Virus record (IMG/VR): IMGVR_UViG_3300045988_179268 | Span: 1-64,000 of that record | Direction: 5' to 3' (one strand) | From: a virus | DNA length: 64,000 bases | Part shown: positions 4,555 through 52,730 of the stretch, piece after piece | Layout of the letters: every line of letters begins with the position of its first letter | How positions within the stretch are numbered: position 1 is the first letter of the stretch | Translations under genes and position numbers: made by a program | The notes under the pieces: model-generated | Databases searched by the model: none | Told to the model about the DNA's origin: nothing | Seen by the model: only the letters and a program-made list of their open reading frames with translations

Positions 4555-7500
4555 TTGAGAGGGACTTTCCTATTGGTTAATCCTATTGAGAAGGCTTTAC
4601 GATTTGGTGAACGCCGCGAAGAGAAGCGCGCCCAGAAACTAGTTGAAGCCATTGAACTTCTTGAGCCTATCTATGAAGACATGCCTGATGATGAGTTGCG
4701 TGCGCAGACCGATGAGTTTAAAGACCGAATCGCTAACGGTGAAGAGCTGGACACGATTCTTCCTGAGGCGTTTGCGGTTGTACGTGAGGCTTCTCACCGC
4801 GTACTAGGTAAACGCCAGTATCCTGTACAGCTATTGGGTGGTATTGCCTTGCATTTTGGGCAGGTAGCCGAAATGGGTACTGGTGAGGGCAAAGCTGTAA
4901 CCATCGACACGCTCATTCCCATGCCTGAGGGTGCCCGCCTCGCAGGAGACATCCATATTGGCGATACCGTGTATGCCGGTAATGGTGATTTAACTGTGGT
5001 TACAGGTGTTTTCCCTCAAGGTGAGCAGGACGTTTACCGTGTCTACTTCGAGGACGGCAGGTCTATTGATTGCAACCTTGAGCATCTTTGGGATGTATGT
5101 GACCAGTATGGGGTGTATGAGACAGTTGCCACTAGCCAGGTAATTGAGCGTCTACAGGCTGGCAATCTGGTCTTTATTCCCGCGCAGGGTGCTACAGCAT
5201 CTAAAAAGCCCGTCAGGGAGCATGTAACGCGCCTTCTGGACGATAATAATGCTTCAACCTCTCTTTACCTTGGTTGCTCCGAAAAGCCCTTAGAAGAGGA
5301 TTCTGGGGGTTCCTGGGCGCTACTGCGTAGTTTGATTGATTGTGGGGCTGTATTCACCACTATCGACCTTGAGGAAGTTTCTGCTGTTCATTACCAGTTG
5401 AATCTTGAGAAATACGAGGCATTGGAAGGCGCATATGACCTGGCTGAAATCCTAGATGACACAGTTCGCCCTGTCATGCCTTTCGGCTCCCAATACGTGC
5501 CGGGTTCTGAACAGCAGATTGAACAGCTCATCAAGCACGTTTCCACTTTACGTGTTTACGATAAGGTGACGGCTCATGCCTATTCAGAGGCGGCGGCGGA
5601 AGCTATTGCATGGGTTGCCCGGTCAATGGGCTGGTATGCCTGCATTGCGCCATCTCAGGGGTTCCTGCCCTGGGTTATCGACATTAATAAGAAGTCGAAG
5701 AAGAAGATTCAGGTTGTTGCAGTAGAGAGAATGGGGCGAACTGCCGAACAGGTCTGCTTCACTGTCTCTCACCCCACTCACCTATTCCTTGCTGGTGACC
5801 ATGTGGTGACCCACAACACCTTAACTGCTGTAGCGCCACTGTATCTTAACGCGCTTACTGGTAAGGGCGCGCATCTGGTCACTACTAACGACTACCTGGC
5901 GCGTGAGCAAGAGGAGCAGATGGGTCGAATCTATTCGTTCTTAGGGATGACTCACGGCGCTATTCAGGAGCAGATGTCTCCAAAGGAGCGTCAGGATATT
6001 TACTCGCGAGACATTGTTTATGGCACGAATAACCAGTTTGGCTTCGATTACCTGCGTGACAATATTGCAAAGAGTCCAGATGAGCTGGTTCAACGTGACT
6101 TGAACTATGTAATCATTGATGAGCTTGACTCTATCCTTATTGACGAAGCGGGCACACCACTCATTATTTCGGCCCCCGCTGGAGACACTTCCACGGCAGA
6201 GAAATGGTTTATGGCTAGTGCTGAAATTGTGGGCAACCTTAAACCCGATGTCCACTATGTTTTTGATTTAAAGAAGCGAACAGCCGAATTTCTAGACGCT
6301 GGATACGATGAGATTGAGAATCAGTTAGGCGGCAAGGAAAACGCGATTTTCAGTACGCATAGTGAACTACTGACATTCCTTAACGCCGCACTTAAAGCAG
6401 AAACGCTTTACACCCTAGACAAAGACTATATTGTCGTGGGTGACGAGGTGATGATTGTTGATGAGCATACTGGACGCGCGATGGAAGGTCGCCGGTACAG
6501 CCACGGTCTACACCAGGCGCTTGAAGCTAAAGAACGACGTAACGGCAAGTTTGAGGTTCAGATTCAGCCTGAAAACCCCACGGTGGCAACTATTACCTTG
6601 CAGAACTTCTTCCGCCTTTATGAGAAGATGTCTGGGATGACTGGTACGGCGGCTTCGGAGGCGGCTGAACTTGCAGACACCTACAACTTGACTGTACGCA
6701 CCATTCCACCGAACAAGGAGAAACAGCGCGTAGACCTTGAAGATGAAATTTACATCTCTGAGGCGAAAAAGTTTAAGGCTGTCGTCCAGGAAATTAAGGC
6801 TCTTCACGACGATTCTGAGGGCGAGTACACTACACCTGATGGGGAGAAGCGCCCCCTTGTACAGCCTATCCTTATTGGTACGACTAGCGTTGCCGCGTCT
6901 GAACGTTTATCTAGGATGCTGACTGCCGCTGGCATTAAGCATAATGTCCTTAATGCCAAGCATGTTGAACAGGAGGCGCATATCGTTGCGCAGGCAGGTC
7001 GTCTTGGGGCTGTCACCATTTCAACAAACATGGCTGGTCGTGGTACGGATATTCTTCTTGGTGGAAGCGCAGACATGCTTGTCGAGGAACAGATGCAAAT
7101 TATGGGACTTACCCCAGAGCATACGCCAACCGCTTACGAGGAACAACGTCACGCATTACAGCCTATTATGGACAGGAAAGTAGCTGAGGAAGCTGACTTG
7201 GTGCGTGAGCTTGGTGGCTTATACGTCATGGGTACAGCTAGACATGATTCTCGCCGTATTGATAATCAGCTTATTGGTCGTTCCGGTAGGCAGGGCGACC
7301 CCGGTCGTTCAAAGTTCTTCTTATCCTTGGAGGACGAACTGCTACGGTTCTACAGCCCCCGACAGGTGGCAGGTATTAGTCGCGTGATGGCTAAGACACC
7401 TGATGCGCCGCTGTCTGGCAAGATTCTGTCTAAAGCAATTGAGAATGCTCAGGCTTCTATCGACGGCAAGCATCGCGAAGGCAGGAAGAGTACTTTGGAG

Positions 7501-8079
7501 TATGATGACGTTCTCACGAAACAGCGTGAGAAGACGTACTCTGAGCGAAAGAAGCTTCTTCATGGAGATGCTGATTTTGTTCTTGACCAGGCTATCTGGT
7601 TTATTGAATGCGCCGTTTCGGAGGTTGTGGAACAATGGATTTCAGTTAATGGTGACCATCTGGACGACTGGGATTTGAAAGCCCTCTGGAGTCACCTTTA
7701 TGATGAGCTGGATTGGAAGCCGTCAATCACGGTGAAGGATGTTCTTGATGAATATCCTACTACCACGGAGCTTACTCGTGAAGTCCTCGTGAAGGAGCTT
7801 GTCTCTGCCGCTGTACAGCAGTGGGATGTTCGAGTGGAGTCTGGGCGAGAGGTTGCCGCTTCTTTCGCTAGGCAGGCGGCTTTAACTGCAATTGATGAAG
7901 AGTGGATTGCGCATCTGGCAGAGCTGGATTACCTCAAAGAAGGTATCGGCATGAGGGCGTATGCACAGAAAGACCCGAAGGTAGAATATCGCCTTGAAGC
8001 GGGCGACATGTATAACCAAATGAATACTGTTTTTGTAAAGAGAACCTTTACGAAAATTGTGCTTGGCGTTAAGCGCTAA
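4555..8079 (+). CDS. secA: preprotein translocase ATPase SecA, interrupted by an in-frame intein
   Basis: Collinear with bacterial SecA: AEMGTGEGK...TLTAVAPLYLNALTGKGAHLVTTNDYLA, VIIDELDSILIDEAGTPLIIS, TGMTGTA, TISTNMAGRGTDI, GRSGRQGDPG. TTG start at 4555 is assumed. No C-terminal zinc-binding tail. Confidence 0.93.
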   Translation: MRGTFLLVNPIEKALRFGERREEKRAQKLVEAIELLEPIYEDMPDDELRAQTDEFKDRIANGEELDTILPEAFAVVREASHRVLGKRQYPVQLLGGIALHFGQVAEMGTGEGKAVTIDTLIPMPEGARLAGDIHIGDTVYAGNGDLTVVTGVFPQGEQDVYRVYFEDGRSIDCNLEHLWDVCDQYGVYETVATSQVIERLQAGNLVFIPAQGATASKKPVREHVTRLLDDNNASTSLYLGCSEKPLEEDSGGSWALLRSLIDCGAVFTTIDLEEVSAVHYQLNLEKYEALEGAYDLAEILDDTVRPVMPFGSQYVPGSEQQIEQLIKHVSTLRVYDKVTAHAYSEAAAEAIAWVARSMGWYACIAPSQGFLPWVIDINKKSKKKIQVVAVERMGRTAEQVCFTVSHPTHLFLAGDHVVTHNTLTAVAPLYLNALTGKGAHLVTTNDYLAREQEEQMGRIYSFLGMTHGAIQEQMSPKERQDIYSRDIVYGTNNQFGFDYLRDNIAKSPDELVQRDLNYVIIDELDSILIDEAGTPLIISAPAGDTSTAEKWFMASAEIVGNLKPDVHYVFDLKKRTAEFLDAGYDEIENQLGGKENAIFSTHSELLTFLNAALKAETLYTLDKDYIVVGDEVMIVDEHTGRAMEGRRYSHGLHQALEAKERRNGKFEVQIQPENPTVATITLQNFFRLYEKMSGMTGTAASEAAELADTYNLTVRTIPPNKEKQRVDLEDEIYISEAKKFKAVVQEIKALHDDSEGEYTTPDGEKRPLVQPILIGTTSVAASERLSRMLTAAGIKHNVLNAKHVEQEAHIVAQAGRLGAVTISTNMAGRGTDILLGGSADMLVEEQMQIMGLTPEHTPTAYEEQRHALQPIMDRKVAEEADLVRELGGLYVMGTARHDSRRIDNQLIGRSGRQGDPGRSKFFLSLEDELLRFYSPRQVAGISRVMAKTPDAPLSGKILSKAIENAQASIDGKHREGRKSTLEYDDVLTKQREKTYSERKKLLHGDADFVLDQAIWFIECAVSEVVEQWISVNGDHLDDWDLKALWSHLYDELDWKPSITVKDVLDEYPTTTELTREVLVKELVSAAVQQWDVRVESGREVAASFARQAALTAIDEEWIAHLAELDYLKEGIGMRAYAQKDPKVEYRLEAGDMYNQMNTVFVKRTFTKIVLGVKR
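4894..5817 (+). mobile_element. intein (308 aa) in the SecA Walker-A loop; class-3-like with degenerate LAGLIDADG core
   Basis: Inserted between GEGK and TLTAV. Starts with Ala and ends VVTHN, followed by Thr +1. Block B is NLEHLW, block F QVCFTV. LLRSLIDCGA is LAGLIDADG-like. Confidence 0.85.
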
Positions 8080-16619: not shown

Positions 16620-16821
16620 ATGCACAAAAACCCCTCCATAATGCCGCAAGTAATGTCACCTTTAAATAGTTATGCATCGCACTTCTTTGCTATGTTATTC
16701 GAGTATGCCTGCATTGGCATGGTTCAACTACTCTGCTTTGAACCAATAGACCTTGATAATTACGGTTGTACGTTCAAAGAGCTATGCGACCCGAGAAACA
16801 TATTTGAAGGAAACACGACTT

Positions 16822-19809
16822 TTGAGTAAGAAGACCAATATTAACGTGAAGAAGACTGTCATTGCGTCCGCACTTTTGACCGCTACTATCGCTGGCACTG
16901 TAGCTCCGGCGGTGGCAAATGGTGAGCCAAAGGGCAAGAAAGAGCCTCTAACTGCCGGTTCAACTATTACCGTCTCTGAGACAGAAACCATTAAGAATGA
17001 TGCGGACACCCGTCTTCACGGAGATACAGCTACTACGGAAGCCGCCCCAACCCTACAGGGCGCTGTAGCGGTAGACAACATTAAGGTTGCTTTAGCTGAA
17101 ACCCCGGAAGAGGGCGCGAAGAGAGGTGGTGCAACCGTTGGTTGGGGTGCTAAAGCTCAGGCTATTGATAAGCAGAACCTAACCGGCGCGCAGGATGCAA
17201 CTATCTCCAACGCCAACGCCCCAACCCTAGCTGTCGTTCCGCTAACTACTAAGAGTGGCTGGAAGCCTTCGTGGGGCATTCTTGGTCAGGATGTGTCTAA
17301 CCATCAGCCGAATATTAACTGGGCGGCACAGTACGCGGGCGGTAGCCGTTTCTCCTGGATGAAAACCAGTGAAGGCACCACCTACGTAGACCCCACGTTC
17401 TCCAAGCACTATATGGGTGCACGTGATGCTGGTCTTGTGACCGGCGGTTACCACTTCGCGTTACCGTCACAGTCATCTGGTCGCACTCAGGCGGAAATTT
17501 TCATCAAGAACGGTGGTGGGTGGACTGCCGACGGTAAGACCTTACCCGGTATGCTTGACCTTGAGTATAACCCCTACCCGTCATTGGGTAACACCTGCTT
17601 CGGCATGTCTCAGTCACAGTTGAAGGCGTGGACGTGGGACTTCATGAACACGTATAAGGAGAAGACAGGGCGCTACCCGACTATTTACTCCACAACTGAC
17701 TGGTGGAACACTTGCATGGGCGGTACGGGTGAGTTTAAGGCGGCTCCGCTTCATATCGCCAACTATTCTACTGGCCCTGGATACATGCCTGGCGGCTCAA
17801 CCAGCTTCGACATCTGGCAATTTTCATCGGTAGCGCCTTTCGCGGGCGATAGCAACGTGTTTAACGGTTCGCAGGCTGAGTTGGATAACTTTGTTCGCGA
17901 CCCTAACTATGTGTCTAAGTGGCAGAGTAACGGTAAGGTTTCACCTGCTCCAACTGGCTTCCGTTCTGCTCATGCTCCCGAGGCTCCCAAGCCTGCACCT
18001 GTTGTTGATAATGGTGACCGTAACTTCGGCAATGGTGGCTTCATCAATATTCATAGTGGTATTGGTAGCTACTGGAACAAGAACCAGGAGCGTTACGGTA
18101 CACCTATCGGTCGCGAGCTTGCACTACCTAACGGCTGGGCGCAAGACTTCACTAACGGCTACCGCATCCTTCACCGTAAGGACGGTAAGGGTGGTGCCGT
18201 CTACCTGCGTGGCGCGATTGGTGACCTATGGGTAAAGAACGGCAATGAGTACGGCAAGTTTGGCTACCCGCTAACCGATGAATATTCATTCCGTGAATCT
18301 GCACAGCAGGACTTCGATAGTGGCAAGAAGCTGATTTGGTCTGAAAAAAATGGCGTGCATGTCATGACGAACTTCAAGCCAATTATTCAGAAATGGTTTG
18401 ACCTTGGCGACGTGCGTGGTGTTGGTACCCCGATTACTGATGAGGTTACTAACGGTGACGTTATCCATCAGGATTTCCGCACCAATGACGGCTTTAAGAT
18501 TACCCGTATCAGTTGGAACACCCGCACTAACGCTGTTGCTGTAACGAATGTTAATGAGCAGAGCTCTAATGGCTTCATTATTAAGGGTGGCATCCGTGAG
18601 TATCTGAATAGGATAGGCACCGATTATGGTGGTGCCGCCGGTAATGAGCGCACTATTGATGCTTTGCGTGGCGTGTGGGAGCAGGACTTTAAGAGTGGTC
18701 ACCGTGTAGTCTACTCGTATGGTGCGCAGGGTAAGAGTGTTTGGACTCGTGGCGCTATTGGCGGCAAGTGGGTTCGTTCTGGTGGTTCTGCGGGTACGTA
18801 CCGCTACCCGACGGATGAAGAGAAGCTTCGCGATGGTATTTATTACCAGGATTTCGCATCTGGTCACCGTCTGGCATGGACGGAACGCACGGGTACTCAT
18901 GAGATTTGGATGCGTGGTGCTATCGGCGGCAAGTGGATGACTAACCCGTCGTTCTATGGTGCGCCTGCTACTGATGAGATGCATCGCGGCAACGGCGTTG
19001 TAACGCAGGACTTCATTACCAATAGCGGTCAGAATAATAAGATGGTGTGGACTGAGAAGACCGGCGCACACAACATTGACATTAACAGTGCTATTGCACG
19101 TAAGTGGCTAACCTACGGCGAAATTGGCAAGAACAAGCTTGGTGTTCCCGTAAGCGAAGAATACCATGTGAATGGTGGTCGCGCGCAGGACTTCAAAAAT
19201 GGCGACGACTACTACATTATCGGCTGGGATGCTTCTACTAACCGCACACACGTTATCCAGTTCAACAGCGAAGTCGGCAAGAAGTGGGCTCGTGAAGGTC
19301 ACTGGGACAAGCATGGATTCCCACAGAGCGACGTGGTAGGTAACCGTAACGCTACTACTCAGTGGTTCTCACGTACTGGTAAGCTCAGCACTCTACATAA
19401 TATCGCGCACGGGTCAGCTGTAGTGCCTGCAAGCCTGTCTGCTGAGCCGCTAGTCAATCAGCAGGTCAGCAACATTAAGGATAGGATTGTGGCGACTGCT
19501 AAAACCGGGCTTGGGGGCACCTACGTTTGGGGCGGCAAGACATTCAAGTCTTGGGACTGCTCTGGCTTCGTCTCCTGGGTTTACGCCCAGCACGGCATCA
19601 AGCTCACCCCTTACACCTTCGCGATGAAGAATGAGTTGAAGCCTACCGTCACTCCTCAGCCTGGCGACATTGTGTTCCAGAATGGTTACAACCATGTCGG
19701 TATCTATTTGGGCGACGGTAAGATGATTTCTGCTCTCAATCCGTCGAATGGCACGCTTATCCACCCGGTGAACTGGATGCCTGTTGATGGATACTACACG
19801 GCTAAGTAA
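16822..19809 (+). CDS. secreted cell-wall hydrolase: GH25 muramidase, LGFP-type repeats and C-terminal NlpC/P60 endopeptidase
   Basis: TTG 16822 is preceded by GAAGGAAA (alternative GTG at 16846). Signal peptide ..ASALLTATIAGTVAPAVANG. GH25 block GQDVSNHQPNINW..FSWMKTSEGTTYVDPTF..GGYHFALP. NlpC/P60 block GGTYVWGGKTFKSWDCSGFV..GYNHVGIYLGDG. Confidence 0.85.
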   Translation: MSKKTNINVKKTVIASALLTATIAGTVAPAVANGEPKGKKEPLTAGSTITVSETETIKNDADTRLHGDTATTEAAPTLQGAVAVDNIKVALAETPEEGAKRGGATVGWGAKAQAIDKQNLTGAQDATISNANAPTLAVVPLTTKSGWKPSWGILGQDVSNHQPNINWAAQYAGGSRFSWMKTSEGTTYVDPTFSKHYMGARDAGLVTGGYHFALPSQSSGRTQAEIFIKNGGGWTADGKTLPGMLDLEYNPYPSLGNTCFGMSQSQLKAWTWDFMNTYKEKTGRYPTIYSTTDWWNTCMGGTGEFKAAPLHIANYSTGPGYMPGGSTSFDIWQFSSVAPFAGDSNVFNGSQAELDNFVRDPNYVSKWQSNGKVSPAPTGFRSAHAPEAPKPAPVVDNGDRNFGNGGFINIHSGIGSYWNKNQERYGTPIGRELALPNGWAQDFTNGYRILHRKDGKGGAVYLRGAIGDLWVKNGNEYGKFGYPLTDEYSFRESAQQDFDSGKKLIWSEKNGVHVMTNFKPIIQKWFDLGDVRGVGTPITDEVTNGDVIHQDFRTNDGFKITRISWNTRTNAVAVTNVNEQSSNGFIIKGGIREYLNRIGTDYGGAAGNERTIDALRGVWEQDFKSGHRVVYSYGAQGKSVWTRGAIGGKWVRSGGSAGTYRYPTDEEKLRDGIYYQDFASGHRLAWTERTGTHEIWMRGAIGGKWMTNPSFYGAPATDEMHRGNGVVTQDFITNSGQNNKMVWTEKTGAHNIDINSAIARKWLTYGEIGKNKLGVPVSEEYHVNGGRAQDFKNGDDYYIIGWDASTNRTHVIQFNSEVGKKWAREGHWDKHGFPQSDVVGNRNATTQWFSRTGKLSTLHNIAHGSAVVPASLSAEPLVNQQVSNIKDRIVATAKTGLGGTYVWGGKTFKSWDCSGFVSWVYAQHGIKLTPYTFAMKNELKPTVTPQPGDIVFQNGYNHVGIYLGDGKMISALNPSNGTLIHPVNWMPVDGYYTAK
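18040..19370 (+). repeat. about eight LGFP-like cell-wall-binding repeats
   Basis: Recurring unit G-A-I-x-x-K/L-W..G..G-x-P-x-[ST]-[DE]-E..QDF..G, for example YGKFGYPLTDEY, YRYPTDEE, LGVPVSEEY, HGFPQSD. Boundaries are approximate. Confidence 0.6.
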
Positions 19810-25367: not shown

Positions 25368-26264
25368 ATGACCGAAAGTCTCAATGAAGGTGCCGCCTCG
25401 CTACCCACACAGCCCACTGAGACATCACGTAACGTAGATACCCAGGCGGAAGCCACGGAAGGGCACGATAGCCATTCTACGGGGCTACTGAGGCTTTTAG
25501 GATACGGCATTACGGCTGTGACCCTCGCTTTTCTATTCAGTAATGCTTTGGTCTGGGTTCTCAGCAAACCTATTTCTAGCCTTAACCTACCTGTGGGTAG
25601 TCATCATGTCTTTTCAATGGTTTACAGTGTCGCAATTATTCTTGTAACTTTTGGTATTGCGAAAGCAGTTTCAGCTAGAGTGGGCATGAGGCTTTGGTCT
25701 GTGGCATTGGGTGTTTTCAATCCAGCGCACGCATATAGGTATTTGTGGAGTGGTGTGCTTGGTGCTGTTGTACTTATGGCTATCAGCGTTGGTTCTGCTG
25801 TCCTTCTGGGTGGCAGGTCTGCGGCTGATGCAGTGGCACCCTACCAGGTGATGAATCTGCCGACTTTGGCGGCGTACTTTGGTTTCACTGTTGCCCTTGC
25901 TCCCATTGCTGAGGAGATGCTTTTTCGAGGCGTACTGATGTCTGTTGTCCGCAACAGTGTTATTCCTGGCGCTAAGGTTCTCATGGTTGGTATTTCAGCA
26001 TTTGGGTTCATGTTTTATCATGTGGCGGGTGCGTTTATCTCAGCAGTCAATCTGGCAGTAGCCTCCGGCTCCTTCGAGGTGCTGACAACTACTGTCGTGG
26101 CGTTACTACCTCAGATTGTAATGTACCTACTATCAGGCATTGCGCTATGCGTGCTGGCTTTGAAGACGCAAAATATTTACGCCTCTTGGCTTGCCCACGC
26201 TATCTACAACATGGCTTTGCTGTACGGGGTGAACAGTATTCTTGTTGGATGGGTCACTGGTTAA
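25368..26264 (+). CDS. CPBP-family (CAAX protease-like) intramembrane metalloprotease
   Basis: Polytopic membrane protein with the EEMLFRGVL, FMFYH and LAHAIYN motifs (EExxxR / FxxxH / H of the CPBP family). Confidence 0.75.
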   Translation: MTESLNEGAASLPTQPTETSRNVDTQAEATEGHDSHSTGLLRLLGYGITAVTLAFLFSNALVWVLSKPISSLNLPVGSHHVFSMVYSVAIILVTFGIAKAVSARVGMRLWSVALGVFNPAHAYRYLWSGVLGAVVLMAISVGSAVLLGGRSAADAVAPYQVMNLPTLAAYFGFTVALAPIAEEMLFRGVLMSVVRNSVIPGAKVLMVGISAFGFMFYHVAGAFISAVNLAVASGSFEVLTTTVVALLPQIVMYLLSGIALCVLALKTQNIYASWLAHAIYNMALLYGVNSILVGWVTG

Positions 26265-34136: not shown

Positions 34137-35237
34137 TTGAATACCCAGAATCCCGTTATCCACATTGTTGCGCATATGAGCGAAGATAGGCGGCGTGTCG
34201 GATTCCTGCCTGTTGCAGGTGGTTCGCTCGATGCTTTGAGTGTCCCCGTTGTCCAGTCAGTTTTTACAGGTAAGTCCATTCCTGATGGTCAGCCTACCAT
34301 TATTGAGGTCATTGATGAGTTGCGTGGTTGCGGGTATGACCGTGCCGATTTTGTTCTTGTTGCTTGGGATGCTCAGCGCATTTTGAGTGAGACTAAACGC
34401 GCAATTCCTGCTTTAAGTGCATTGGTTGGTGGCAAAGTGGTTGAGATGGAGTCCCTAGCTTTGGCTTTTAGCGGGTTGCCGTCAGACTCGCCGTATCGCT
34501 TCGTTCGTCCTGATGGCGGGTTGGCGCTAGTTGATGCTGTTCAGGATGTCTATTCTTTATATAAAGATAACATTATGAACCTTGCCACTTCTTATGATGC
34601 TATGCGCATTAGCGAGCACATCGGAAGCGGGGACGATTCTGACGGTGAAACGTTGAGGTCGCCTGCGTTGCTAGGTATTGGCGGCAAGAAAACGGCTGGC
34701 AAGGACACATTTGCTGGTCTTCTCGGCGATAACTGGGTGGTTATTGGTATGTCTGACCCGTTGTATGAGGTGTTGCTTGAACTTAATCCAAAGATTACAT
34801 ATGAGGCGGATGGTGATGCCGCTAATGTTGTTTATCTTTCCAATTATCTGCATAGTGTATGTGGTGGTGATTGGACTTTGGCTAAGCGAAACTCGGATGT
34901 TCGAGAAATGTTACAGCGGCTAGGCACTAATGTTGTGCGAAATATGGTTGATGAGGATGCCTGGGTGGATATGATGTCTGTCCGTGTGTTGCAACTTCAT
35001 TCTGAGGGCAAGAATGTTGCTGTCACTGGCATTAGGTTCCCCAATGAGCTTGCCCGTATTAAGGATATGGGTGGCAGTTCCGTCTGGGTTGAGAATAATC
35101 GAATCGACTCACCTGATACGCATATTTCTGAGCTATCTCTAATGCCTCGGGATTTCGATTTCACTGTCTACAATAATGGGTCTTTAGATGATTTGAATCA
35201 TTCTGCGAAGCAGGTTGCAGATATGGTTTCCGGCTAG
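34137..35237 (+). CDS. two-domain protein; C-terminal half resembles phage-type deoxynucleoside monophosphate kinase
   Basis: TTG start after TAAGGAG. P-loop-like GIGGKKTAGKDTFAGLL, plus LQRLGTNVVRNMVDEDAWV and VTGIRFPNELARIK. The N-terminal roughly 170 aa are unassigned. Confidence 0.5.
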   Translation: MNTQNPVIHIVAHMSEDRRRVGFLPVAGGSLDALSVPVVQSVFTGKSIPDGQPTIIEVIDELRGCGYDRADFVLVAWDAQRILSETKRAIPALSALVGGKVVEMESLALAFSGLPSDSPYRFVRPDGGLALVDAVQDVYSLYKDNIMNLATSYDAMRISEHIGSGDDSDGETLRSPALLGIGGKKTAGKDTFAGLLGDNWVVIGMSDPLYEVLLELNPKITYEADGDAANVVYLSNYLHSVCGGDWTLAKRNSDVREMLQRLGTNVVRNMVDEDAWVDMMSVRVLQLHSEGKNVAVTGIRFPNELARIKDMGGSSVWVENNRIDSPDTHISELSLMPRDFDFTVYNNGSLDDLNHSAKQVADMVSG

Positions 35238-37122: not shown

Positions 37123-37956
37123 TTATGCTACTGGTTCTGCTACCACCACATGATTATCAGTGTAAGTCCAGGTGCCATTTTTATAGGTTCCGTGGCACGT
37201 CGCCATGATAAGTTTGCGGGAGCCGTTCTTATCGGTCACGTCCCACCATTTGCTCAAATCGACCTGTGGGACTTTAGGCTCAATACGGGTTACTTTCCAT
37301 GTAGTCATAATTCCGTTCTCGTCCGTGGTGTAGACTGTATTTCCGCGTTCGCAGGCGACAATGGCACTCATGGGGGCGGGGACACCATTTGCCCAGTTTA
37401 CGTGACCCACTAGCAATGTCGTCCCTTTGTTGCTGGTCAGTGGCGCTGAGTCGGTGTAAACGCCGATTCTGTATGTTACAGGGATATTGATTTCTGTCCT
37501 GCCCGTTGTGGGGTTGTCAGTCCCTCCCGTGTATTGGAGTCCAGCGTTAAACCCTACATCTGGGATTCGGATAGTCATAGGGTTGATATTGTTCCAGTCT
37601 AGGTTTTTAGGTTGCTGACCCAATCCGGGGGTTGTATCCTCGGGCATATGGTCGATGCTATCAATATCGCCGCTTGTCTCTGCATGGTAATTTGGGGAGG
37701 CGGTGGTGGCAGTAGTATCGGTAGTAGGTTGTGATGGGGTTGGGGTAATTGAGGCGTTCCCGCTGTTTGACTGCTGAATTTCTGCAATTTGCGAAGCGCT
37801 GGGTGCATTGAATGATTCTGCTTGACGATTCACGTTCTCACGGTTTACTGAGTCAAAGTAGTATCCTGCACCGCCACCTAATGCGCTTGCGGCGGCAACT
37901 ACACCAACACCCTTCAATACATCGCGGCGGCTAGTCTTTTTCTGATTATCGGTCAT
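37123..37956 (-). CDS. sortase-like cysteine transpeptidase (class E/F-like) with twin-arginine signal-anchor
   Basis: N-terminus TSRRDVLKGVGVVAAASALGG. MTIRIPDVGFNAGLQ resembles the sortase PxxLxIPxxG strand. His motif TLLVGHVNW, Cys motif LIMATCHG. No Arg occurs in the 23 residues after the Cys (HGTYKNGTWTYTDNHVVVAEPVA). Confidence 0.7.
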   Translation of the reverse strand: MTDNQKKTSRRDVLKGVGVVAAASALGGGAGYYFDSVNRENVNRQAESFNAPSASQIAEIQQSNSGNASITPTPSQPTTDTTATTASPNYHAETSGDIDSIDHMPEDTTPGLGQQPKNLDWNNINPMTIRIPDVGFNAGLQYTGGTDNPTTGRTEINIPVTYRIGVYTDSAPLTSNKGTTLLVGHVNWANGVPAPMSAIVACERGNTVYTTDENGIMTTWKVTRIEPKVPQVDLSKWWDVTDKNGSRKLIMATCHGTYKNGTWTYTDNHVVVAEPVA

Positions 37957-38719: not shown

Positions 38720-39406
38720 ATGTCGCTCAGCAAGTCTCACATGAATAATGCGGATAGGATGGCTTCTATCCGTTCGTCAGCTGTTTCTGCGCCGCCGCCA
38801 CCAGATACGGAGCATGTTAAGCCACAAGGTAAGACTAGAAGGTTCCCGAGGCTTGTAACGGGTCTATTTGTCGGCATGTTAGTGGTGGCGGGTGCTGGGT
38901 ATGGTGCTTATAAAAGCGGCGTAACACCTGATACGCTCATAAGTAAAGTTTCGCCTACAGTCACCCAGTATCGTGTTGCGGGTGATTCAATGTTGCCCAC
39001 CTTTCAGGACGGGCAGATTCTTCTTTTTGAGAACCCACAGTCGGAACCTATTAATCGTGGCGATATTGTCGTCGCAGAAATGCCTGCCGTATGGCAATAT
39101 GCCAGCGCTACGCAGGGTGTCGTGGTGAAGAGGGTCGCCGCCGCTGAGGGAGACACGGTTTCTGTTATCGCGGGCGCTGTTCATGTAAATGGCGAACAAA
39201 TCACCCCTGTTCAGCCTACTTGCCAAGCAGATGAATATCAGCGTGTCCTTGGTGCTGGTGAGCTTTTTGTACTAGGCGACAATCGTTCCAATTCCCTAGA
39301 CTCTCTTAGTGTTCTCTGTACAGGTAAGGTTGAGGCAGATGCAGATGTACTTGTTCACACTTCCGCCGTTAAAGCCCACGGGAAAACTCCTGTTGTGAAA
39401 GGTTAG
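38720..39406 (+). CDS. lepB: signal peptidase I (S26 family)
   Basis: N-terminal TM anchor. GDSMLPTF (catalytic Ser), VVKRVAAAEGD (catalytic Lys box) and VLGDNRSNSLDS. Confidence 0.85.
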   Translation: MSLSKSHMNNADRMASIRSSAVSAPPPPDTEHVKPQGKTRRFPRLVTGLFVGMLVVAGAGYGAYKSGVTPDTLISKVSPTVTQYRVAGDSMLPTFQDGQILLFENPQSEPINRGDIVVAEMPAVWQYASATQGVVVKRVAAAEGDTVSVIAGAVHVNGEQITPVQPTCQADEYQRVLGAGELFVLGDNRSNSLDSLSVLCTGKVEADADVLVHTSAVKAHGKTPVVKG

Positions 39407-47249: not shown

Positions 47250-48761
47250 TTGATTTCTCCTGAATCATTCGTGAACCTACATACCCACTCAACGTACTCG
47301 ACGTTGGATGGGTTTTCTAGCGTTAGTGAGTACATTAGTCGTGCCGTAGAGGTTGGACAGACCGCTTTAGGTATCACTGACCACGGCAATATGCATGGGA
47401 TTTATGAGCTAATTACTGGGTGCCAGAAAGCTGGGATTACACCTGTTCCAGGTTGCGAGTTTTATGTTGCGCCGCTGAATCCTGATGGTGCTAAGGTTCA
47501 GTCACCCGTTTACTATGGTGAGCCTGGCGCTGATGGTGATGTTTCAGGTAGAGGCAATTATTTGCATTTAACGATGTGGGCTGTCAATGATGAGGGTCTA
47601 CGTAACATGTTTGAGTTGCAGATGTTGGCTTCTTCCCCGGAGCATAAACGTGCAGGGTACCCACGTATTGATTTAGATATGATGCGTGAACATTCCGCAG
47701 GTGTTGTTGTCTCGACGGGCTGTCCGTCAGGTGAGATTTCCACCCGATTCCGCTTAGGTCAAGATGCTGAGGCATATAAGTATGCCGAAACTCTGGTTAG
47801 TATCTATGGGAAAGATAACGTGTTTGTCGAAGTTATGAACCATAACATGACTTCTGACCTTGAACGCGATTTGCTGATGAAGCAGATTAAACTGGCTGAG
47901 ACGCTAGGGTTAAGACTTTTAGCTACGAATGATTGCCATTATGCGCATCATTCTGATGCCCCGCATCATGAGGAGATGCTGGCTATTGGTACTGGTTCCA
48001 CTATGAATGATTTGCCTAAGGAACAAGGTGGGCGAAGGTTCTGCTTTGACGGTGACCAGTATTTCTTGAAGACTGCTGAACAGATGTTAGAGCTTTTCCC
48101 TGAGGATGTTTACCCTGGTGCTGTAACAAATACAGCAGTTCTGGCAGATATGGTGGAGGATTTCTCATTATTTGAGTACAGGTCTGACTTGCGACCCATC
48201 CCGCATATTCCAGCTGACGAAACAGAGGAAAGTTATCTGCGTAGAGTTGTCACGTCTCTTGCGTATGAGCAGTTCCACGATGATGAGGTGAAGTATCGGG
48301 CTGTACTTGATAGGGCGGCTAAAGAGCTTGATGTTCTAGCGTCAGCGAACTATTGCGGTTACATGCTTATTGTTGCTGAGTACGTGAATTGGTTCAGGGA
48401 TAGTTTCAGTGTTCGTAACAGCTCAGGCGACGTTGTGATGAGTGCTGTTGGTATTGCTCGTGGCTCGGCGGGCGGCTCTATTGTTGCTTATTTGTTGGGT
48501 ATTACAGATATTGACCCTATCGAGTACGGGTTGTTTTTTGAGCGTTTCATTTCGGCGGGACGTGTAGACCAGGCTGAAATTTCGGTAGGTGATGGCGCGT
48601 CTGTCGTCCTTCCAGTCTCGGAGAAGGTCAAAGTTCTTACCGAAGATGGGGTTGAGGTTGAGAAGTATATTCACCAGGTAGCAGAAGGTGACTGGGTTTT
48701 GGTTGAACCTGATACGCCTATCGGCAATATTTTTAGCAGTCCCGTTCCGGCTGAGGTCTAG
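47250..48761 (+). CDS. dnaE: DNA polymerase III alpha (DnaE), N-terminal fragment (PHP domain to start of palm)
   Basis: FVNLHTHSTYSTLDG, GITDHGNMHG, ATNDCHY, ..YLLGITDIDPIEYGLFFERFISAGRV, then a 64-aa non-DnaE tail (48567-48758) and a stop codon. Confidence 0.85.
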   Translation: MISPESFVNLHTHSTYSTLDGFSSVSEYISRAVEVGQTALGITDHGNMHGIYELITGCQKAGITPVPGCEFYVAPLNPDGAKVQSPVYYGEPGADGDVSGRGNYLHLTMWAVNDEGLRNMFELQMLASSPEHKRAGYPRIDLDMMREHSAGVVVSTGCPSGEISTRFRLGQDAEAYKYAETLVSIYGKDNVFVEVMNHNMTSDLERDLLMKQIKLAETLGLRLLATNDCHYAHHSDAPHHEEMLAIGTGSTMNDLPKEQGGRRFCFDGDQYFLKTAEQMLELFPEDVYPGAVTNTAVLADMVEDFSLFEYRSDLRPIPHIPADETEESYLRRVVTSLAYEQFHDDEVKYRAVLDRAAKELDVLASANYCGYMLIVAEYVNWFRDSFSVRNSSGDVVMSAVGIARGSAGGSIVAYLLGITDIDPIEYGLFFERFISAGRVDQAEISVGDGASVVLPVSEKVKVLTEDGVEVEKYIHQVAEGDWVLVEPDTPIGNIFSSPVPAEV

Positions 48762-48782
48762 TTTTTAAAGGCGGTTTTAGGT

Positions 48783-50012
48783 ATGAGTGAAGAAGTTGTA
48801 GAAGAAGTTGCTGTTTCAGTTGTTGAGGAGGCAGATTCCGTTGAGCCTACTCAAGCTCAGCCCACAGAGTACGTTGAGTTTCACAGGAAATATCAGCCGC
48901 GTGTCTGGGATGACTTTATTGGGCAGGAGCATATTGTTGCGCCGTTAAAGCGTGACATTATCGAGAACCGCCGTGTCCAGGGTCGCCTATTTCGTGGCGC
49001 GGCTGGAACTGGTAAGTCTAGCATGGTGAAGGTTTTCACTAAGGCGATGAATTGTGAGGGTCGCCCTGCTGATTCTGCTGACCCGTGCCTTGTGTGTGAT
49101 TCGTGTGTCCGTTTTGATGCGGAGGAGAATGGCGGAATGTATTATTTCGTTGGTTCCGTCACAAGTGGTGTAGATGATGTTCGTGCTATCGTTAATGCTG
49201 GTCGTGTTAAGCAGATGATGAAAGCGCCATACATCATTATGGATGAGTGTCACGCTCTGTCGAAGTTTGCCTGGGATGCGTTTTTGGCATACCTGGAAAA
49301 TAAGGACGACATGGATAGTGTTCCTATTATTTTCTGTACCACGGAGGCGGGCGGCATTAAAGCCTCTATTTCAACCCGTGTCCAAGAGTATAAGTTCAGG
49401 AATATCCCTGTCCCTGTTTTGGAGCAGTATGTTAAGGATATTGCTAGGCGTGAGGGTGTGGAAATCACCGACAATGGTGCTTCTTGGTGTGCTCGTGCCG
49501 CCCAGGGTTCAGCCCGTGGCGCGCTAAAGCGTTTAGAAGAGTATCTGCGTAACCCTGACCTTTACTCTGTTGATGAGTCATTCGCCACAGTCCTCATGAG
49601 AGAGTTCATCCTTGGCGATGTACCTAAGCTTCATAAAGCTTTGGAGTCCGTCAAGCAGATTGACTCAGCCTTACGTGACGGCACAGAGCTTGCGATGAAC
49701 CAGCTGAGGCATTACATTGCGCGGCAGAATAAGGCTACGGTCAGTCTAGGAGATTTGCCTTTTGCCGACTTACCTAAGCAGAACGTAGGTTTGTCTATGA
49801 TGGAGCAGAATCTACCGTCTGATAAGGCAATGAAAGTACTTAAACTTATGGCAGAGACTTTCCACGGATTCTGGAATACTACCGACGAGAATATTATCTT
49901 CGAAATTCTTTGGCTAGACCTTACGGTAAGGATGCATGAACTGCTGGAAGATAGGCGCGCGAAGCAAAAAGAGCTTGAGCTACATCAGAATAATTCACAG
50001 GGGCGGAAGTAA
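48783..50012 (+). CDS. DnaX-like AAA+ clamp-loader ATPase (gamma/tau-like)
   Basis: FIGQEHIV, Walker A FRGAAGTGKSS, Zn module NCEG..PCLVCDSC, Walker B IIMDECHALS, sensor-1 FCTTE, SRC-like STRVQEYKF and GSARGAL. Confidence 0.8.
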   Translation: MSEEVVEEVAVSVVEEADSVEPTQAQPTEYVEFHRKYQPRVWDDFIGQEHIVAPLKRDIIENRRVQGRLFRGAAGTGKSSMVKVFTKAMNCEGRPADSADPCLVCDSCVRFDAEENGGMYYFVGSVTSGVDDVRAIVNAGRVKQMMKAPYIIMDECHALSKFAWDAFLAYLENKDDMDSVPIIFCTTEAGGIKASISTRVQEYKFRNIPVPVLEQYVKDIARREGVEITDNGASWCARAAQGSARGALKRLEEYLRNPDLYSVDESFATVLMREFILGDVPKLHKALESVKQIDSALRDGTELAMNQLRHYIARQNKATVSLGDLPFADLPKQNVGLSMMEQNLPSDKAMKVLKLMAETFHGFWNTTDENIIFEILWLDLTVRMHELLEDRRAKQKELELHQNNSQGRK

Positions 50013-50015
50013 TTC

Positions 50016-52730
50016 ATGGGGACTATTGAGAAACGTATTATTGACGGCAAGACATATGTTCGCGTGGCGGGGAATAAAGTTGTTCAGCCTGGTTCGCCAC
50101 CAGATATTGATACAGACTTCCATACAGCCCATAGGGACGCGGCGTTTGAGCATGTAGCTCAGCTGTATGGGGCTGACCATTCTGCGCGTCTGCCTACTAA
50201 CCAGATGCTTAAAACACGCGCGTCTATCAAAGATGGTGCGCGAGTGTATGGTGTGCCGCCTGCGCAGGCTAACTATGTGACGAGTCTTTTGCCAGATAGT
50301 CTAGGCGTTACCTTCGCTAAGGTGTATGACCCTGAGAGTGACGAGTTTGCGGGTGCTGAGCGTTTCCGTGAAGCTGTCAGCACGCCTTTCTGGGAGAAGC
50401 CTCTAGCTTGTGCTAAAGCTCTTGAGGGGCGTATCCGTGGTCGAGGTGTTCACGCTTGCGGACTTCTGATTTCCTCTAGTCCGCTACAGCATCATGTTCC
50501 CGTTGATACTGCTAAGGATGGCACTGTCGTTGCGGGGTTTGAATATGGTGCCTGCGAGAGCATGGGGCTGATTAAGTTTGACTTCTTAGGGCTGGATACT
50601 GTCGATATTCTTTGCGATGCGGCACGTCTAGCAGTGCAAGCCGGGAAAGATGTGCCTGACTTCCGTAAGATGGTTCGAGAAAGCCGCTTTGATGACGCTG
50701 AGACGTTCCGCTTACTGGGTAAGGGCGATACGGTTGGCATCTTCCAGCTAGGCAACTCTGCTGTTGCTGACCTTTTCACGAAGTTCACCCCTAGCACGCT
50801 GGGTGACATTTCAGCTATTACGGCACTTTATCGCCCTGGGCCAATGAGTGCTGGTAGCCATATCCAGTATGTTGAGCGTCGGGCTGGGCGTGAGGAGATT
50901 AAGCCGATTCATGCTGATTTTGTAGGTTCGCCATTAGATAGCATTCTTGCTGACACTAGTGGTCTGCTGGTTTATCAGGAGCAGGTAATGTCAATTGCCT
51001 CGCTTATCGCCGGTATGACCCCTCAAGAAGGTGACGACTTGCGTCGCGCTATCGGTAAGAAGAAGCACGATTTGATGCTTGCATACGCTGAGCGGTTCAT
51101 TGAGGGTGGCGCGGGTAACGGGTATAGCCGAGAAGCTATGCAGGCGTTGTGGGACAGAATTGTCGGATTCGCTGAGTACGGGTTCAATAAATCGCACTCT
51201 GACGCTTACGCGGCAATGGCTTACCTGGCGTTATACATGAAGGCGCATTTTCCAGCTGAATTTTATGCGGCGGCGATTGCCCGCAAGGTGTCAATGGGTT
51301 CATCTGGCAGAGATAAAGTTCAGGAACTCATTGAGGACGCTAAACGTCGAGGCGTTCGACTTGATGTACCTGACGTTAATTTCTCTAGCGCTGACATTGG
51401 TCTAAACGGTGACGGTAACCTTGCGTTTGGATTCTCAATGCTTAAAGGTGTTGGCTCTAAGGATGCTGAGGTTATTGTTTCTGAGCGTGAGAGGGCTGGA
51501 CTGTACTCAAGTTTCAAGGACTTCGTTGTTCGTAGCTTCAACGCAGGCAAGGTCACTAAAACAACGTATGAGGGGTTAGCTAAGGCTGGCGCTTTTGATG
51601 TGTTCGGTCTTTCTCGCAAAGCCGTCTTGGAAGCAATTCCGGGGTATTTAGATTTACTACGAAAAGAGAGGGCTAAGCTTAGGAGGCAGGCGCTAAAGCT
51701 GGCTAAGGAAACAGGCGTTGAGCCGTCCCCTGATGCTGAGCTTGTCTCTGGCGAATCGTTGCCGGAAGATGAAGCGTTAAGTCGAGATGATTATCCGCTG
51801 GTTGAGCGTCTGCGCCATGAAGCTGAGGTTGCTGGGCAGTATATGACGGGTCATCCGATGGCATCTGTGCCCGAGAGGGTACCTGTGATGCGTGGTTGTA
51901 CTGTGAGTGAGCTTATGGCTTCGGAACAGCCGGTGAAGGGTGCGGTAGTGATGGCGGCTATCGTTGCGTTGGATGACAAGACGCATAAGAAGTTTGGGCG
52001 TAAGGTCATTGCCACTTTGGATGATGGTACGGGCGTTATTGCTGGGTATGTTTCTAATAGCCTTCTTGCGCGGGAGGACTTGTGGGTTGCTGAGCAGAAT
52101 ATTAAGAGTGCTTATATTAATGGTGATGCGATTGATTCGTCTGATGCTTCTAAGGTTGATGCCGCGAATATTCAATCCAGCCCTAAGCTACAGCCGTACC
52201 ACGTCTATTCGCTACATGTGAACTACACCCCGGCGCGTAAGATTGTAAATGATGATGGGGAGGTTAATTACCGTCCACCATATTTGAACATTTTGCACGC
52301 CCGACAGGTTCCGTTGTCTGCTTCGGGAGATATGTGCGCCCGGCTAAGGGTCGATATTTCACGCGGCGGCTCTATGGGGGATGTTGTGAGTAAGTTGCGT
52401 GAAATTGTGGGCGGGCTTCATTCCGCTGATTCCACCCGCCACGTTCCGCTGATGGTTGCGCTTTATGACTCGTCAAAGCCGGGGTGTGGCGTGGACTTGC
52501 CCAGCAAGTTCCTTTATGCGGCGCGTGAGGGCACCTCTAAGGGAGTTTCATGGTCAGATTTGCCTGTTGCTCCAATGGAAGCTTCTACGGCGGCTATGCG
52601 AGATTTAGTGGATAAGATGGATTATGTGGAAGTGCCCATGCGGGTTCCTTTCATGAATGCCACGCGGAATACTTTAGTGAAAGTTTTCGGGGAGGGTTCA
52701 TTTGATTGGGGTCATTTCCTGGTTTCTTAA
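50016..52730 (+). CDS. dnaE: DNA polymerase III alpha (DnaE), C-terminal fragment (palm, fingers, beta-binding and OB regions)
   Basis: After a 26-aa non-DnaE leader it resumes at SPPDIDTDF (matching SMPDFDVDF in E. coli). Also GLIKFDFLGLDT, YRPGPM, VYQEQVM and FNKSHSDAYA. Confidence 0.85.
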   Translation: MGTIEKRIIDGKTYVRVAGNKVVQPGSPPDIDTDFHTAHRDAAFEHVAQLYGADHSARLPTNQMLKTRASIKDGARVYGVPPAQANYVTSLLPDSLGVTFAKVYDPESDEFAGAERFREAVSTPFWEKPLACAKALEGRIRGRGVHACGLLISSSPLQHHVPVDTAKDGTVVAGFEYGACESMGLIKFDFLGLDTVDILCDAARLAVQAGKDVPDFRKMVRESRFDDAETFRLLGKGDTVGIFQLGNSAVADLFTKFTPSTLGDISAITALYRPGPMSAGSHIQYVERRAGREEIKPIHADFVGSPLDSILADTSGLLVYQEQVMSIASLIAGMTPQEGDDLRRAIGKKKHDLMLAYAERFIEGGAGNGYSREAMQALWDRIVGFAEYGFNKSHSDAYAAMAYLALYMKAHFPAEFYAAAIARKVSMGSSGRDKVQELIEDAKRRGVRLDVPDVNFSSADIGLNGDGNLAFGFSMLKGVGSKDAEVIVSERERAGLYSSFKDFVVRSFNAGKVTKTTYEGLAKAGAFDVFGLSRKAVLEAIPGYLDLLRKERAKLRRQALKLAKETGVEPSPDAELVSGESLPEDEALSRDDYPLVERLRHEAEVAGQYMTGHPMASVPERVPVMRGCTVSELMASEQPVKGAVVMAAIVALDDKTHKKFGRKVIATLDDGTGVIAGYVSNSLLAREDLWVAEQNIKSAYINGDAIDSSDASKVDAANIQSSPKLQPYHVYSLHVNYTPARKIVNDDGEVNYRPPYLNILHARQVPLSASGDMCARLRVDISRGGSMGDVVSKLREIVGGLHSADSTRHVPLMVALYDSSKPGCGVDLPSKFLYAAREGTSKGVSWSDLPVAPMEASTAAMRDLVDKMDYVEVPMRVPFMNATRNTLVKVFGEGSFDWGHFLVS

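Follow-up and report, generated by a model that had tools for sequence, protein, structure and literature searches.

In the viral record IMGVR_UViG_3300045988_179268, of which positions 1 to 64,000 were analysed and are called the window here, the replicative polymerase DnaE (DNA polymerase III alpha) is encoded as two genes. At 47250-52730 of the window, open reading frame (ORF) calls place three closely spaced genes on one strand, which encode a DnaE N-half, a DnaX-like clamp loader and a DnaE C-half. The break is inside the palm, beside the catalytic aspartates, and the same split is common to a whole clade of huge phages. The tail that ends the N-half and the leader that opens the C-half align as two pieces of one conserved insert, which is predicted to adopt a Hint-like fold and is without splicing residues throughout the family. 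These observations make it probable that DnaE here consists of two pieces held together non-covalently, through strand complementation of a Hint-like minidomain that is catalytically dead and would be retained in the polymerase.

The break in DnaE and the gene between the halves

The genes and their parts are as follows.

47250-48761, + strand: ORF1, DnaE N-half, 503 amino acids (aa), TTG start
47250-48566, + strand: polymerase part of the N-half, residues 1-439; PHP and the first ~240 palm-region residues, ending ...FFERFISAGRV
48567-48707, + strand: N-side piece of the insert, N-half residues 440-486, DQAEISVG...YIHQVAEGDWVLVE; five predicted beta strands, net charge -8
48708-48761, + strand: C-terminal tail of the N-half (low confidence), residues 487-503, PDTPIGNIFSSPVPAEV, plus stop codon
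48783-50012, + strand: ORF2, dnaX-like clamp-loader ATPase, gamma-like, 409 aa; identified by Pfam, phrog_5846 and the E. coli gamma alignment
50016-52730, + strand: ORF3, DnaE C-half, 904 aa
50016-50093, + strand: C-side piece of the insert, C-half residues 1-26, MGTIEKRIIDGKTYVRVAGNKVVQPG; three predicted strands, net charge +3
50094-52730, + strand: polymerase part of the C-half, residues 27-904; SPPDIDTDF (catalytic DxD), the rest of the palm (KFDFLGL), fingers and HhH

DnaE is not a single polypeptide here, as two ORFs carry it with a 1.2-kb gene between them. Over the two halves, PHP, the palm DxD and third Asp, the fingers and HhH are nonetheless all present; the corresponding palm aspartates of E. 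coli alpha are D401, D403 and D555 (the third Asp). ORF1 matches the Pfam families PHP (PF02811, E 5e-35, residues 10-198) and DNA_pol3_alpha (palm, profile positions 2-104 of 260). ORF3 continues the latter at positions 100-260, so that the palm profile is covered across both proteins, and adds the finger domain PF17657 (5e-43) and HHH_6 (PF14579, 5e-20). The C-half has no match to PF01336 (OB fold), unlike its bacterial relatives, and its residues ~680-904 are without a Pfam match.

The position of the break was read from a virtual junction, in which ORF1 without its 64-aa tail was joined to ORF3 without its 26-aa leader. This sequence aligns end to end and without gaps to residues 425-526 of Taq alpha (2hpi, E 4e-27) and to residues 363-464 of E. 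coli alpha (2hnh, E 8e-22), and the break is therefore exact to the residue. The N-half reads ...FFERFISAGRV(439) before its 64 additional residues, while the C-half resumes after its 26-aa leader with SPPDIDTDF, which pairs with E. coli alpha 398-406. The break thus separates the counterparts of V397 and S398 of E. coli and precedes D401 by three residues; D401 and D403 reportedly form the catalytic DxD pair (Lamers, 2006).

ORF2 matches DNA_pol3_delta2 (1e-12), AAA and the DnaX lid in Pfam, the clamp loader phrog_5846 (5e-40), and residues 3-229 of E. coli gamma (1njf, E 1e-22). It carries a Walker A motif (GTGKSS), a four-Cys module (NCEG...PCLVCDSC) and a Walker B motif (IMDECH), and at the Arg finger STR replaces SRC with the Arg retained. 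Homology to solved tau/gamma chains stops at residue ~259, with ~150 residues beyond. Because the protein has only 409 aa and its homology ends at ~259, it is gamma-like in length, without the tau-specific domains IV-V that bind DnaB and alpha. A preliminary description of the locus, made from the sequence alone, had already recognised DnaE as two genes with a residue-exact break and a complete same-strand DnaX-like gene with these motifs between them, which the alignments to Taq alpha, E. coli alpha and E. coli gamma bear out. It had placed the break at the PHP-palm junction, and this has to be corrected, as ~240 palm-region residues sit in the N-half and the break is within the palm.

ORF1 and ORF2 are 21 nucleotides (nt) apart and ORF2 and ORF3 only 3 nt, the ATG of ORF3 lying 3 nt past the dnaX stop and being preceded by the stretch GGCGGAAG within the end of ORF2. 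Given these tight gaps, co-transcription and translational coupling of the three genes would be the simplest reading. In a consensus scan of the locus, promoter-like and terminator-like sites were no commoner than in shuffles, so the scan contributes nothing past the tight gene spacing.

The insert shared by the two halves

Six relatives of ~1290-1550 aa (P0159, P0161, P0163, P0174, P0176 and P0185) have an uninterrupted DnaE, and all carry an insert of 61-63 aa between ERFLSPGRG and PGS(A/P)PDIDTDF, for example GAMYQIDYTDGTSEEANTGDKREVVNSDKDVEKYVHELTPGESVEHDGIVKEIKSLEVIRPG. The N-part of this insert matches the N-half tails, with the consensus G-x-T-Y-x-I-T-Y-D-D-G-T-x-E-E-I-V-S...K-Y-I-H-Q-L-x-V-G-D-x-V, and its last strand matches the C-half leaders, with K-K-I-x-S-I-x-V-(I/V)-x-(P/A)-G. 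Further, the window insert and the uninterrupted insert align in hhalign at 99.4% probability (E 2.5e-20), and the leader is conserved in all 55 split C-halves. More distant bacterial and phage DnaEs are insert-free and read ERFLNPER(V/I)|SMPD. As judged from these alignments, the 64-aa tail and the 26-aa leader are two pieces of one conserved insert, which totals ~62-90 aa across the family. In the window clade it is somewhat diverged and has an extra hairpin in the leader, and the end of the N-half tail (from residue 487) varies among relatives in both length and sequence. The leader hairpin EKRIIDGKTYVRV (50016-50093) resembles the tail strand YIHQVAEGDWVLV (48660-48707), and MAFFT placed the hairpin on the YIHQ..GD..V strand of the tail; the likeness may reflect a small internal duplication or chance.

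The residues that an intein would need were counted in 120 N-side sequences and 55 C-half leaders. The position aligned with E. coli V397 is Gly in 114 of the 120 and Val in six. The first residue of the insert is variable (A 57, D 17, S 17, N 14, P 6, H 6, E 3; Asp in the window), whereas the last residue of the leader is Gly in 55/55, preceded by Pro in 42, Ala in 10 and Ser in 3. Block B TxxH and a WCT-type motif are absent from the aligned tails and leaders, and the sole conserved His of the insert lies in (K/R)-Y-(I/V)-H-(Q/E)-L, with Y-x-H in 112/119. The +1 residue is Ser in 54 leaders and Thr in one, which is uninformative on splicing because the Ser is equally conserved in insert-free DnaE (SMPD). 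By established intein chemistry, branch resolution is impossible in all known intein classes without a terminal Asn, Gln or Asp. Going by the aligned residues, the insert is without splicing residues family-wide.

Canonical inteins (C...VHN|S) occur in nine N-half relatives (P0018, P0022, P0052, P0067, P0075, P0093, P0100, P0119 and P0120), at GRG|SVGGS, ~40 residues upstream, with the insert tail retained. They are mini forms or forms with a Pfam match to a TnsA-like endonuclease. C-half inteins are likewise found in P0133, P0145, P0152 and others, and the split DnaE is an intein hot spot. Real inteins are thus readily recognised in this family, and the tail and leader are not of that kind.

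The fold was modelled with AlphaFold2 (AF2) on the uninterrupted insert of P0159, using a 93-row alignment, and the model has six strands at a predicted local distance difference test (pLDDT) score of 79.6. In a Foldseek search of the PDB, the top 22 matches were all inteins (probability 1.00, E 0.01-0.13, query-based template-modelling score (TMq) 0.52-0.60), including PhoCDC21-1, RadA, PolII, TvoVMA, TFIIB, MchDnaB-1, the class-3 Msm DnaB, gp41-1 and NpuDnaB. Root-mean-square deviations (rmsd) of these matches were 1.9-6.3 Å over 61-88 columns, most being ~2-4 Å over 61-69, with gp41-1 at 1.9 Å over 62 columns. The next class in the PDB was Hfq, at a template-modelling (TM) score of ~0.33 and an rmsd of ~10 Å. 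Coverage of the intein targets was low (target-based score (TMt) 0.2-0.4), with about half a Hint domain covered. In BFVD, the best matches were mostly large terminases and unnamed phage proteins, together with entries annotated 'Intein C-terminal splicing region' and 'Hint module' (E 2e-3 to 0.1, most over 59-62 columns at an rmsd of 1.5-2.1 Å). Large terminases are known intein hosts (PMC2677866; PaBG paper), though the terminase regions aligned with the insert need not be inteins themselves. The insert is therefore modelled as a Hint-like fold of about half the size of a mini-intein.

A second AF2 model was made of the window N-half and C-half residues 1-600, fused into one covalent chain (pLDDT 91.7, predicted TM score 0.87). 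In this model the tail forms five strands (441-445, 451-455, 459-463, 469-473 and 482-485; pLDDT 76-92) and the leader three (509-512, 515-519 and 522-527, C-half residues 6-24; pLDDT 75-91), and pLDDT falls to ~50 only at the linker around the artificial junction (residues 491-500). In the model of the isolated insert, the leader-equivalent strand (63-74) can hydrogen-bond only with tail-equivalent strands, since nothing else is structured there. In addition, the tail cores are acidic (mean net charge -5.8, 97% negative; window -8) and the leaders basic (mean +2.6, 84% positive; window +3). An acidic N piece and a basic C piece are the pattern described for natural split inteins (PMC2677866).

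Several earlier suggestions about the tails are strengthened by these results. Their resemblance to Hint termini, first noticed in the sequence, recurs in the top matches of the insert model in two structure libraries, and the family-wide counts agree with the lack of a position-1 nucleophile, TxxH and terminal HN/Asn that had been remarked on in the window. Co-folded as a fused chain, tail and leader are both predicted as confident strands. One homologous insert, a Hint-like fold, no splicing residues and a shared beta domain in the models are in line with the preliminary proposal of non-covalent reassembly through intein-derived tails.

Distribution, gene arrangements and genomic setting

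The exact three proteins are recorded on 4 contigs, and clustering at 90% identity places them in sets of 111, 58 and 126 members, which come from independent samples and lie on contigs of ~300-412 kb; all members are metagenomic and none comes from NCBI or UniRef. A search with the N-half protein found the same split in more than 100 clusters, whose members measure 480-515 aa, share the C-terminal tail and lie on contigs of up to 727 kb. The C-half search returned ~55 clusters of PHP-less proteins of 790-940 aa, in which a short leader is followed by S-x-P-D-x-D-x-D. The split is present on hundreds of viral contigs of 200-730 kb and in 25 or more sequenced loci, and both halves co-occur wherever enough sequence is at hand. 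No near-identical DNA was found in the phage collection, where tblastn detected only contiguous DnaEs that are 35-38% identical. The split DnaE is not peculiar to this genome but common to a whole clade of huge phages. Frameshift, read-through and assembly error are rejected as explanations, as a complete gene lies between the halves, the contigs number in the hundreds and are independent, and the halves are ~174-209 kb apart in three of them.

The halves occur in several arrangements.

Uninterrupted gene with the insert: L003
Halves adjoining (TAA-A-GTG), dnaX ~8 kb downstream: L006
N-half, dnaX, C-half: window, L004, L007-L011, L016
N-half, dnaX, one further gene, C-half: L005, L017, L018, L024
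Five genes including dnaX between the halves: L001
N-half and dnaX, with the C-half ~174-209 kb off on the same strand and contig: 3300006292_000168, 3300045988_170943, 3300008363_000089

The ~174-209 kb separation excludes read-through or frameshifting in cis, and any association must be in trans. In all loci of subclade B except L001, a dnaX-like gene comes first among the recognised homologues downstream of the N-half and usually adjoins it directly, so that this N-half-dnaX pairing is more strongly conserved than where the C-half lies. The gene order PRA-PH, an unknown protein of 370-400 aa and the DnaE N-half is also kept in distant relatives. At 9990-10010 of L006 a single base separates the two ORFs (TAA A GTG), with the C-half read in the +1 frame. 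One indel plus stop loss could fuse or split the gene there, and the transition may for this reason have happened repeatedly.

In a neighbour-joining tree built from 409 columns of the shared N-part (200 bootstraps), crude in method and small in sampling, the insert-bearing DnaEs are monophyletic in 199/200 replicates, and the insert would therefore have been gained once. The uninterrupted forms fall in one subclade, within which the adjacent-split L006 is nested (200/200); every split form that has dnaX behind the N-half, the window among them, falls in the other (174/200). Tentatively, these groupings suggest that fission in the same loop happened two or more times, or once with a later re-fusion. 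The split is read as the ancestral state of a large clade of huge phages.

In the sister lineages P0117 (L005 9001-10647), P0045, P0058, P0068 and P0089, the N-half tail continues for a further 60-100 residues of acidic, low-complexity sequence. The extended tails end in ...ELADIPF, ...ELDSIPF, ...DLSLIPF, ...DIASVPF and ...DLDRIPF, and the N-half of the window is without such an end. The C-terminal tip of bacterial SSB is ...DDDIPF and needs a free carboxyl end. The ...IPF/VPF ends resemble this tip, and a free carboxyl end at this place is possible only with a split gene. Most split C-halves have, by alignment consensus, a G-x-S-L-F-D motif that resembles the beta-clamp-binding motif; at ~51760-51800 (C-half residues ~585-593) the window clade has SGESLPEDE instead. 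No beta-clamp gene was seen among the window protein scans. These scans, which cover 64 kb of ~320 kb or more, also detected no other replicative polymerase.

Elsewhere in the window, a full-length SecA homologue (4555-8079, +; 1174 aa, SecA_DEAD E 1e-106), a type I signal peptidase (S26; 38720-39406, +) and a sortase with a twin-arginine translocation (TAT) signal (37123-37956, -) form a secretion and surface-anchoring set that is uncommon in viruses. A 1018-aa protein at 16753-19809 (+) combines a GH25 muramidase, five LGFP repeats and NlpC/P60. The LGFP repeats, and the Actinomycetaceae DnaEs that are the top-scoring named cellular matches in the C-half search, suggest an actinobacterial host, and the window derives from a huge phage, probably of such a host. 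Other recognised genes encode a bacterial-type RecA (456 bits; 58620-59819, -, the strand opposite to the dnaE genes), a C5 cytosine methylase (1436-2713, +), a deoxynucleoside monophosphate kinase (34137-35237, +) and two Rce1-like CAAX protease homologues (25368-26264 and 59986-60774, +).

Proposed assembly of the halves and comparison with known systems

The two-piece enzyme that we consider probable could have arisen in a few steps. An ancestor of the phage group would have gained a small Hint-type domain in DnaE just before the catalytic DxD strand. This domain, which has no splicing residues, would persist in the mature enzyme, and in some relatives it is still found unbroken, as an insert of ~62 aa. 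In the window lineage, the gene would then have been broken in the loop ahead of the last strand or strands of the domain, leaving an acidic five-strand piece at the end of the N-half and a basic piece of one to three strands at the start of the C-half. After translation, the two pieces would complete one beta domain, as the parts of split inteins do before splicing, and their docking would rebuild the palm and the active site without a peptide bond. Co-transcription and probable translational coupling would match the amounts of both halves and of the clamp-loader ATPase.

A bolder version, which we regard as possible but rather doubtful, holds that a dead mini-Hint was domesticated as the heterodimerisation module of the polymerase in a whole clade of huge phages, leaving the halves free to drift up to ~200 kb apart. 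Under domestication, the fission would also have left a free C-terminus next to the active site where none existed before, to which some lineages have added an SSB-like acidic ...D-I-P-F tail, and the conserved N-half-dnaX pairing would reflect coupled assembly of polymerase and clamp loader.

Several points weigh against a docked, intein-derived minidomain. In hhalign, the insert profiles match nine canonical inteins of the same gene family at a probability of 2-3%, which is not significant, so the case for intein ancestry is made by fold and context. E-values in Foldseek are modest (0.002-0.1), and in size the domain comes to about half a mini-intein. The near-invariant His (112/119) hints at a function of the insert beyond docking, and the AF2 model of the assembled enzyme comes from a covalently fused chain, not from separate chains. 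Part of this would suit an alternative to which we give a low probability, in which the halves do dock non-covalently but the domain is an unrelated small beta-barrel that resembles half a Hint domain and possibly has its own function near the active site. Besides the hhalign result and the His, Foldseek E-values of 1e-2 to 1e-3 with TMt of 0.2-0.4 are compatible with such a barrel, as is purifying selection on the insert even where the gene is uninterrupted. It is harder to reconcile with a list of PDB matches whose top 22 are all inteins, with Hfq coming next at TM 0.33 and ~10 Å, and with a second library that independently gives terminases and intein- or Hint-annotated entries. Also typical of inteins are the site by the catalytic residues, the charge pattern and a break that precedes the terminal strand or strands.

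That the pieces form a functional, unusually small split intein, which trans-splices the halves into one covalent DnaE, we think very improbable. The Hint-like fold, the +1 Ser in 54/55, the acidic N and basic C pieces and the wealth of canonical inteins elsewhere in the same gene family would all fit splicing. However, Gly ends the insert in 55/55, which makes Asn cyclisation impossible, the insert opens with no fixed residue (Ala, Asp or Asn in most cases), neither TxxH nor a WCT-type motif is present, and the +1 Ser is kept equally in intein-free DnaE. The insert also measures 62-90 aa against ~125 aa or more for the matched intein structures, and contiguous relatives hold the same residue-poor insert. 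Least credible of all is that the halves do not reassemble, the N-half having a function of its own, such as PHP exonuclease or pyrophosphatase activity, and the C-half being inactive or serving another role: the ~170-210 kb separation in some lineages and the closer tie of dnaX to the N-half than to the C-half would allow it, but the break cuts the palm three residues before DxD, all polymerase motifs are kept over both halves, the halves co-occur with their complementary tail and leader conserved clade-wide, and no other replicative polymerase appeared in the scans of the 64-kb window.

The two-piece DnaE with a docking minidomain shares features with several known systems. The split DnaE of cyanobacteria (Ssp and Npu DnaE inteins) is likewise encoded by two genes that may be far apart, with complementary Hint parts of acidic N and basic C character. 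Its intein of ~137-160 aa has Cys1, TxxH and Asn-Cys and splices, and it lies in the fingers at site a (PMC4760082), whereas the insert described here is at a palm site before DxD, measures 62-90 aa, has no catalytic residues and is predicted to stay in the enzyme. Among mapped PolIII-alpha inteins, the fingers are the hot spot and PHP holds an additional site (PMC4760082); both differ from the palm site. The 'fractured genes' of marine metagenomes (Dassa et al., 2009; PMC2677866) come close in their phage-like loci, with adjacent same-strand halves of dnaE and other replication genes, an intervening gene and split Hint pieces. In those loci, however, the inteins have all five catalytic residues and the gene between is a free-standing homing endonuclease, while here it is a housekeeping clamp loader and the Hint pieces appear catalytically dead. 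A 'minimal split Pol III alpha' of two proteins, proposed to reconstitute, has been reported in group 2.2 jumbo phages (Iyer et al., 2021; PMC7824862). That protein is without PHP and other domains, accompanies a family B polymerase and has no described Hint-like insert, in contrast to the full-size DnaE of the window with its PHP, fingers and HhH.

The contiguous DnaE of a Streptomyces phage cluster ('DnaE-like DNA polymerase III alpha') has the same domain order and 35-38% identity over both halves, but is a single polypeptide and insert-free at R-V|S-x-P-D. Non-covalent reassembly of two polypeptides into an active enzyme has precedents in the NrdA of Aeromonas phage Aeh1, split by mobE, and in the split gp43 of T4-like phages. 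We know of no dedicated docking domain described for either, whereas in the phages studied here a conserved split minidomain appears to supply the interface. By analogy, the system would be like a split intein stopped at the association step. The architecture was not described in the literature searched (including the PaBG paper, Timinskas 2014 and an actinobacteriophage intein preprint), and it is a conserved gene-fission variant with an intein-type interface that has apparently not been reported previously.

The two halves are at present labelled separately as 'DNA polymerase III alpha' or left unnamed in annotations, and they could be mistaken for pseudogenes. If the two-piece assembly is true, a C-family replicative polymerase can work with its backbone interrupted three residues away from the catalytic aspartates, and an intein can end as a permanent non-splicing docking domain instead of being lost. 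These phages would then offer a natural system for testing intein domestication, and possibly very small orthogonal association tags (~47 aa plus 14-26 aa). Should the domestication of the mini-Hint also hold, it would represent a natural 'intein zipper' that does not splice, and with it a new means of building and regulating a replisome. The adjacency of the N-half and dnaX, together with the SSB-like tails of the sister lineages, suggests an unexplored wiring of the replisome in huge phages.

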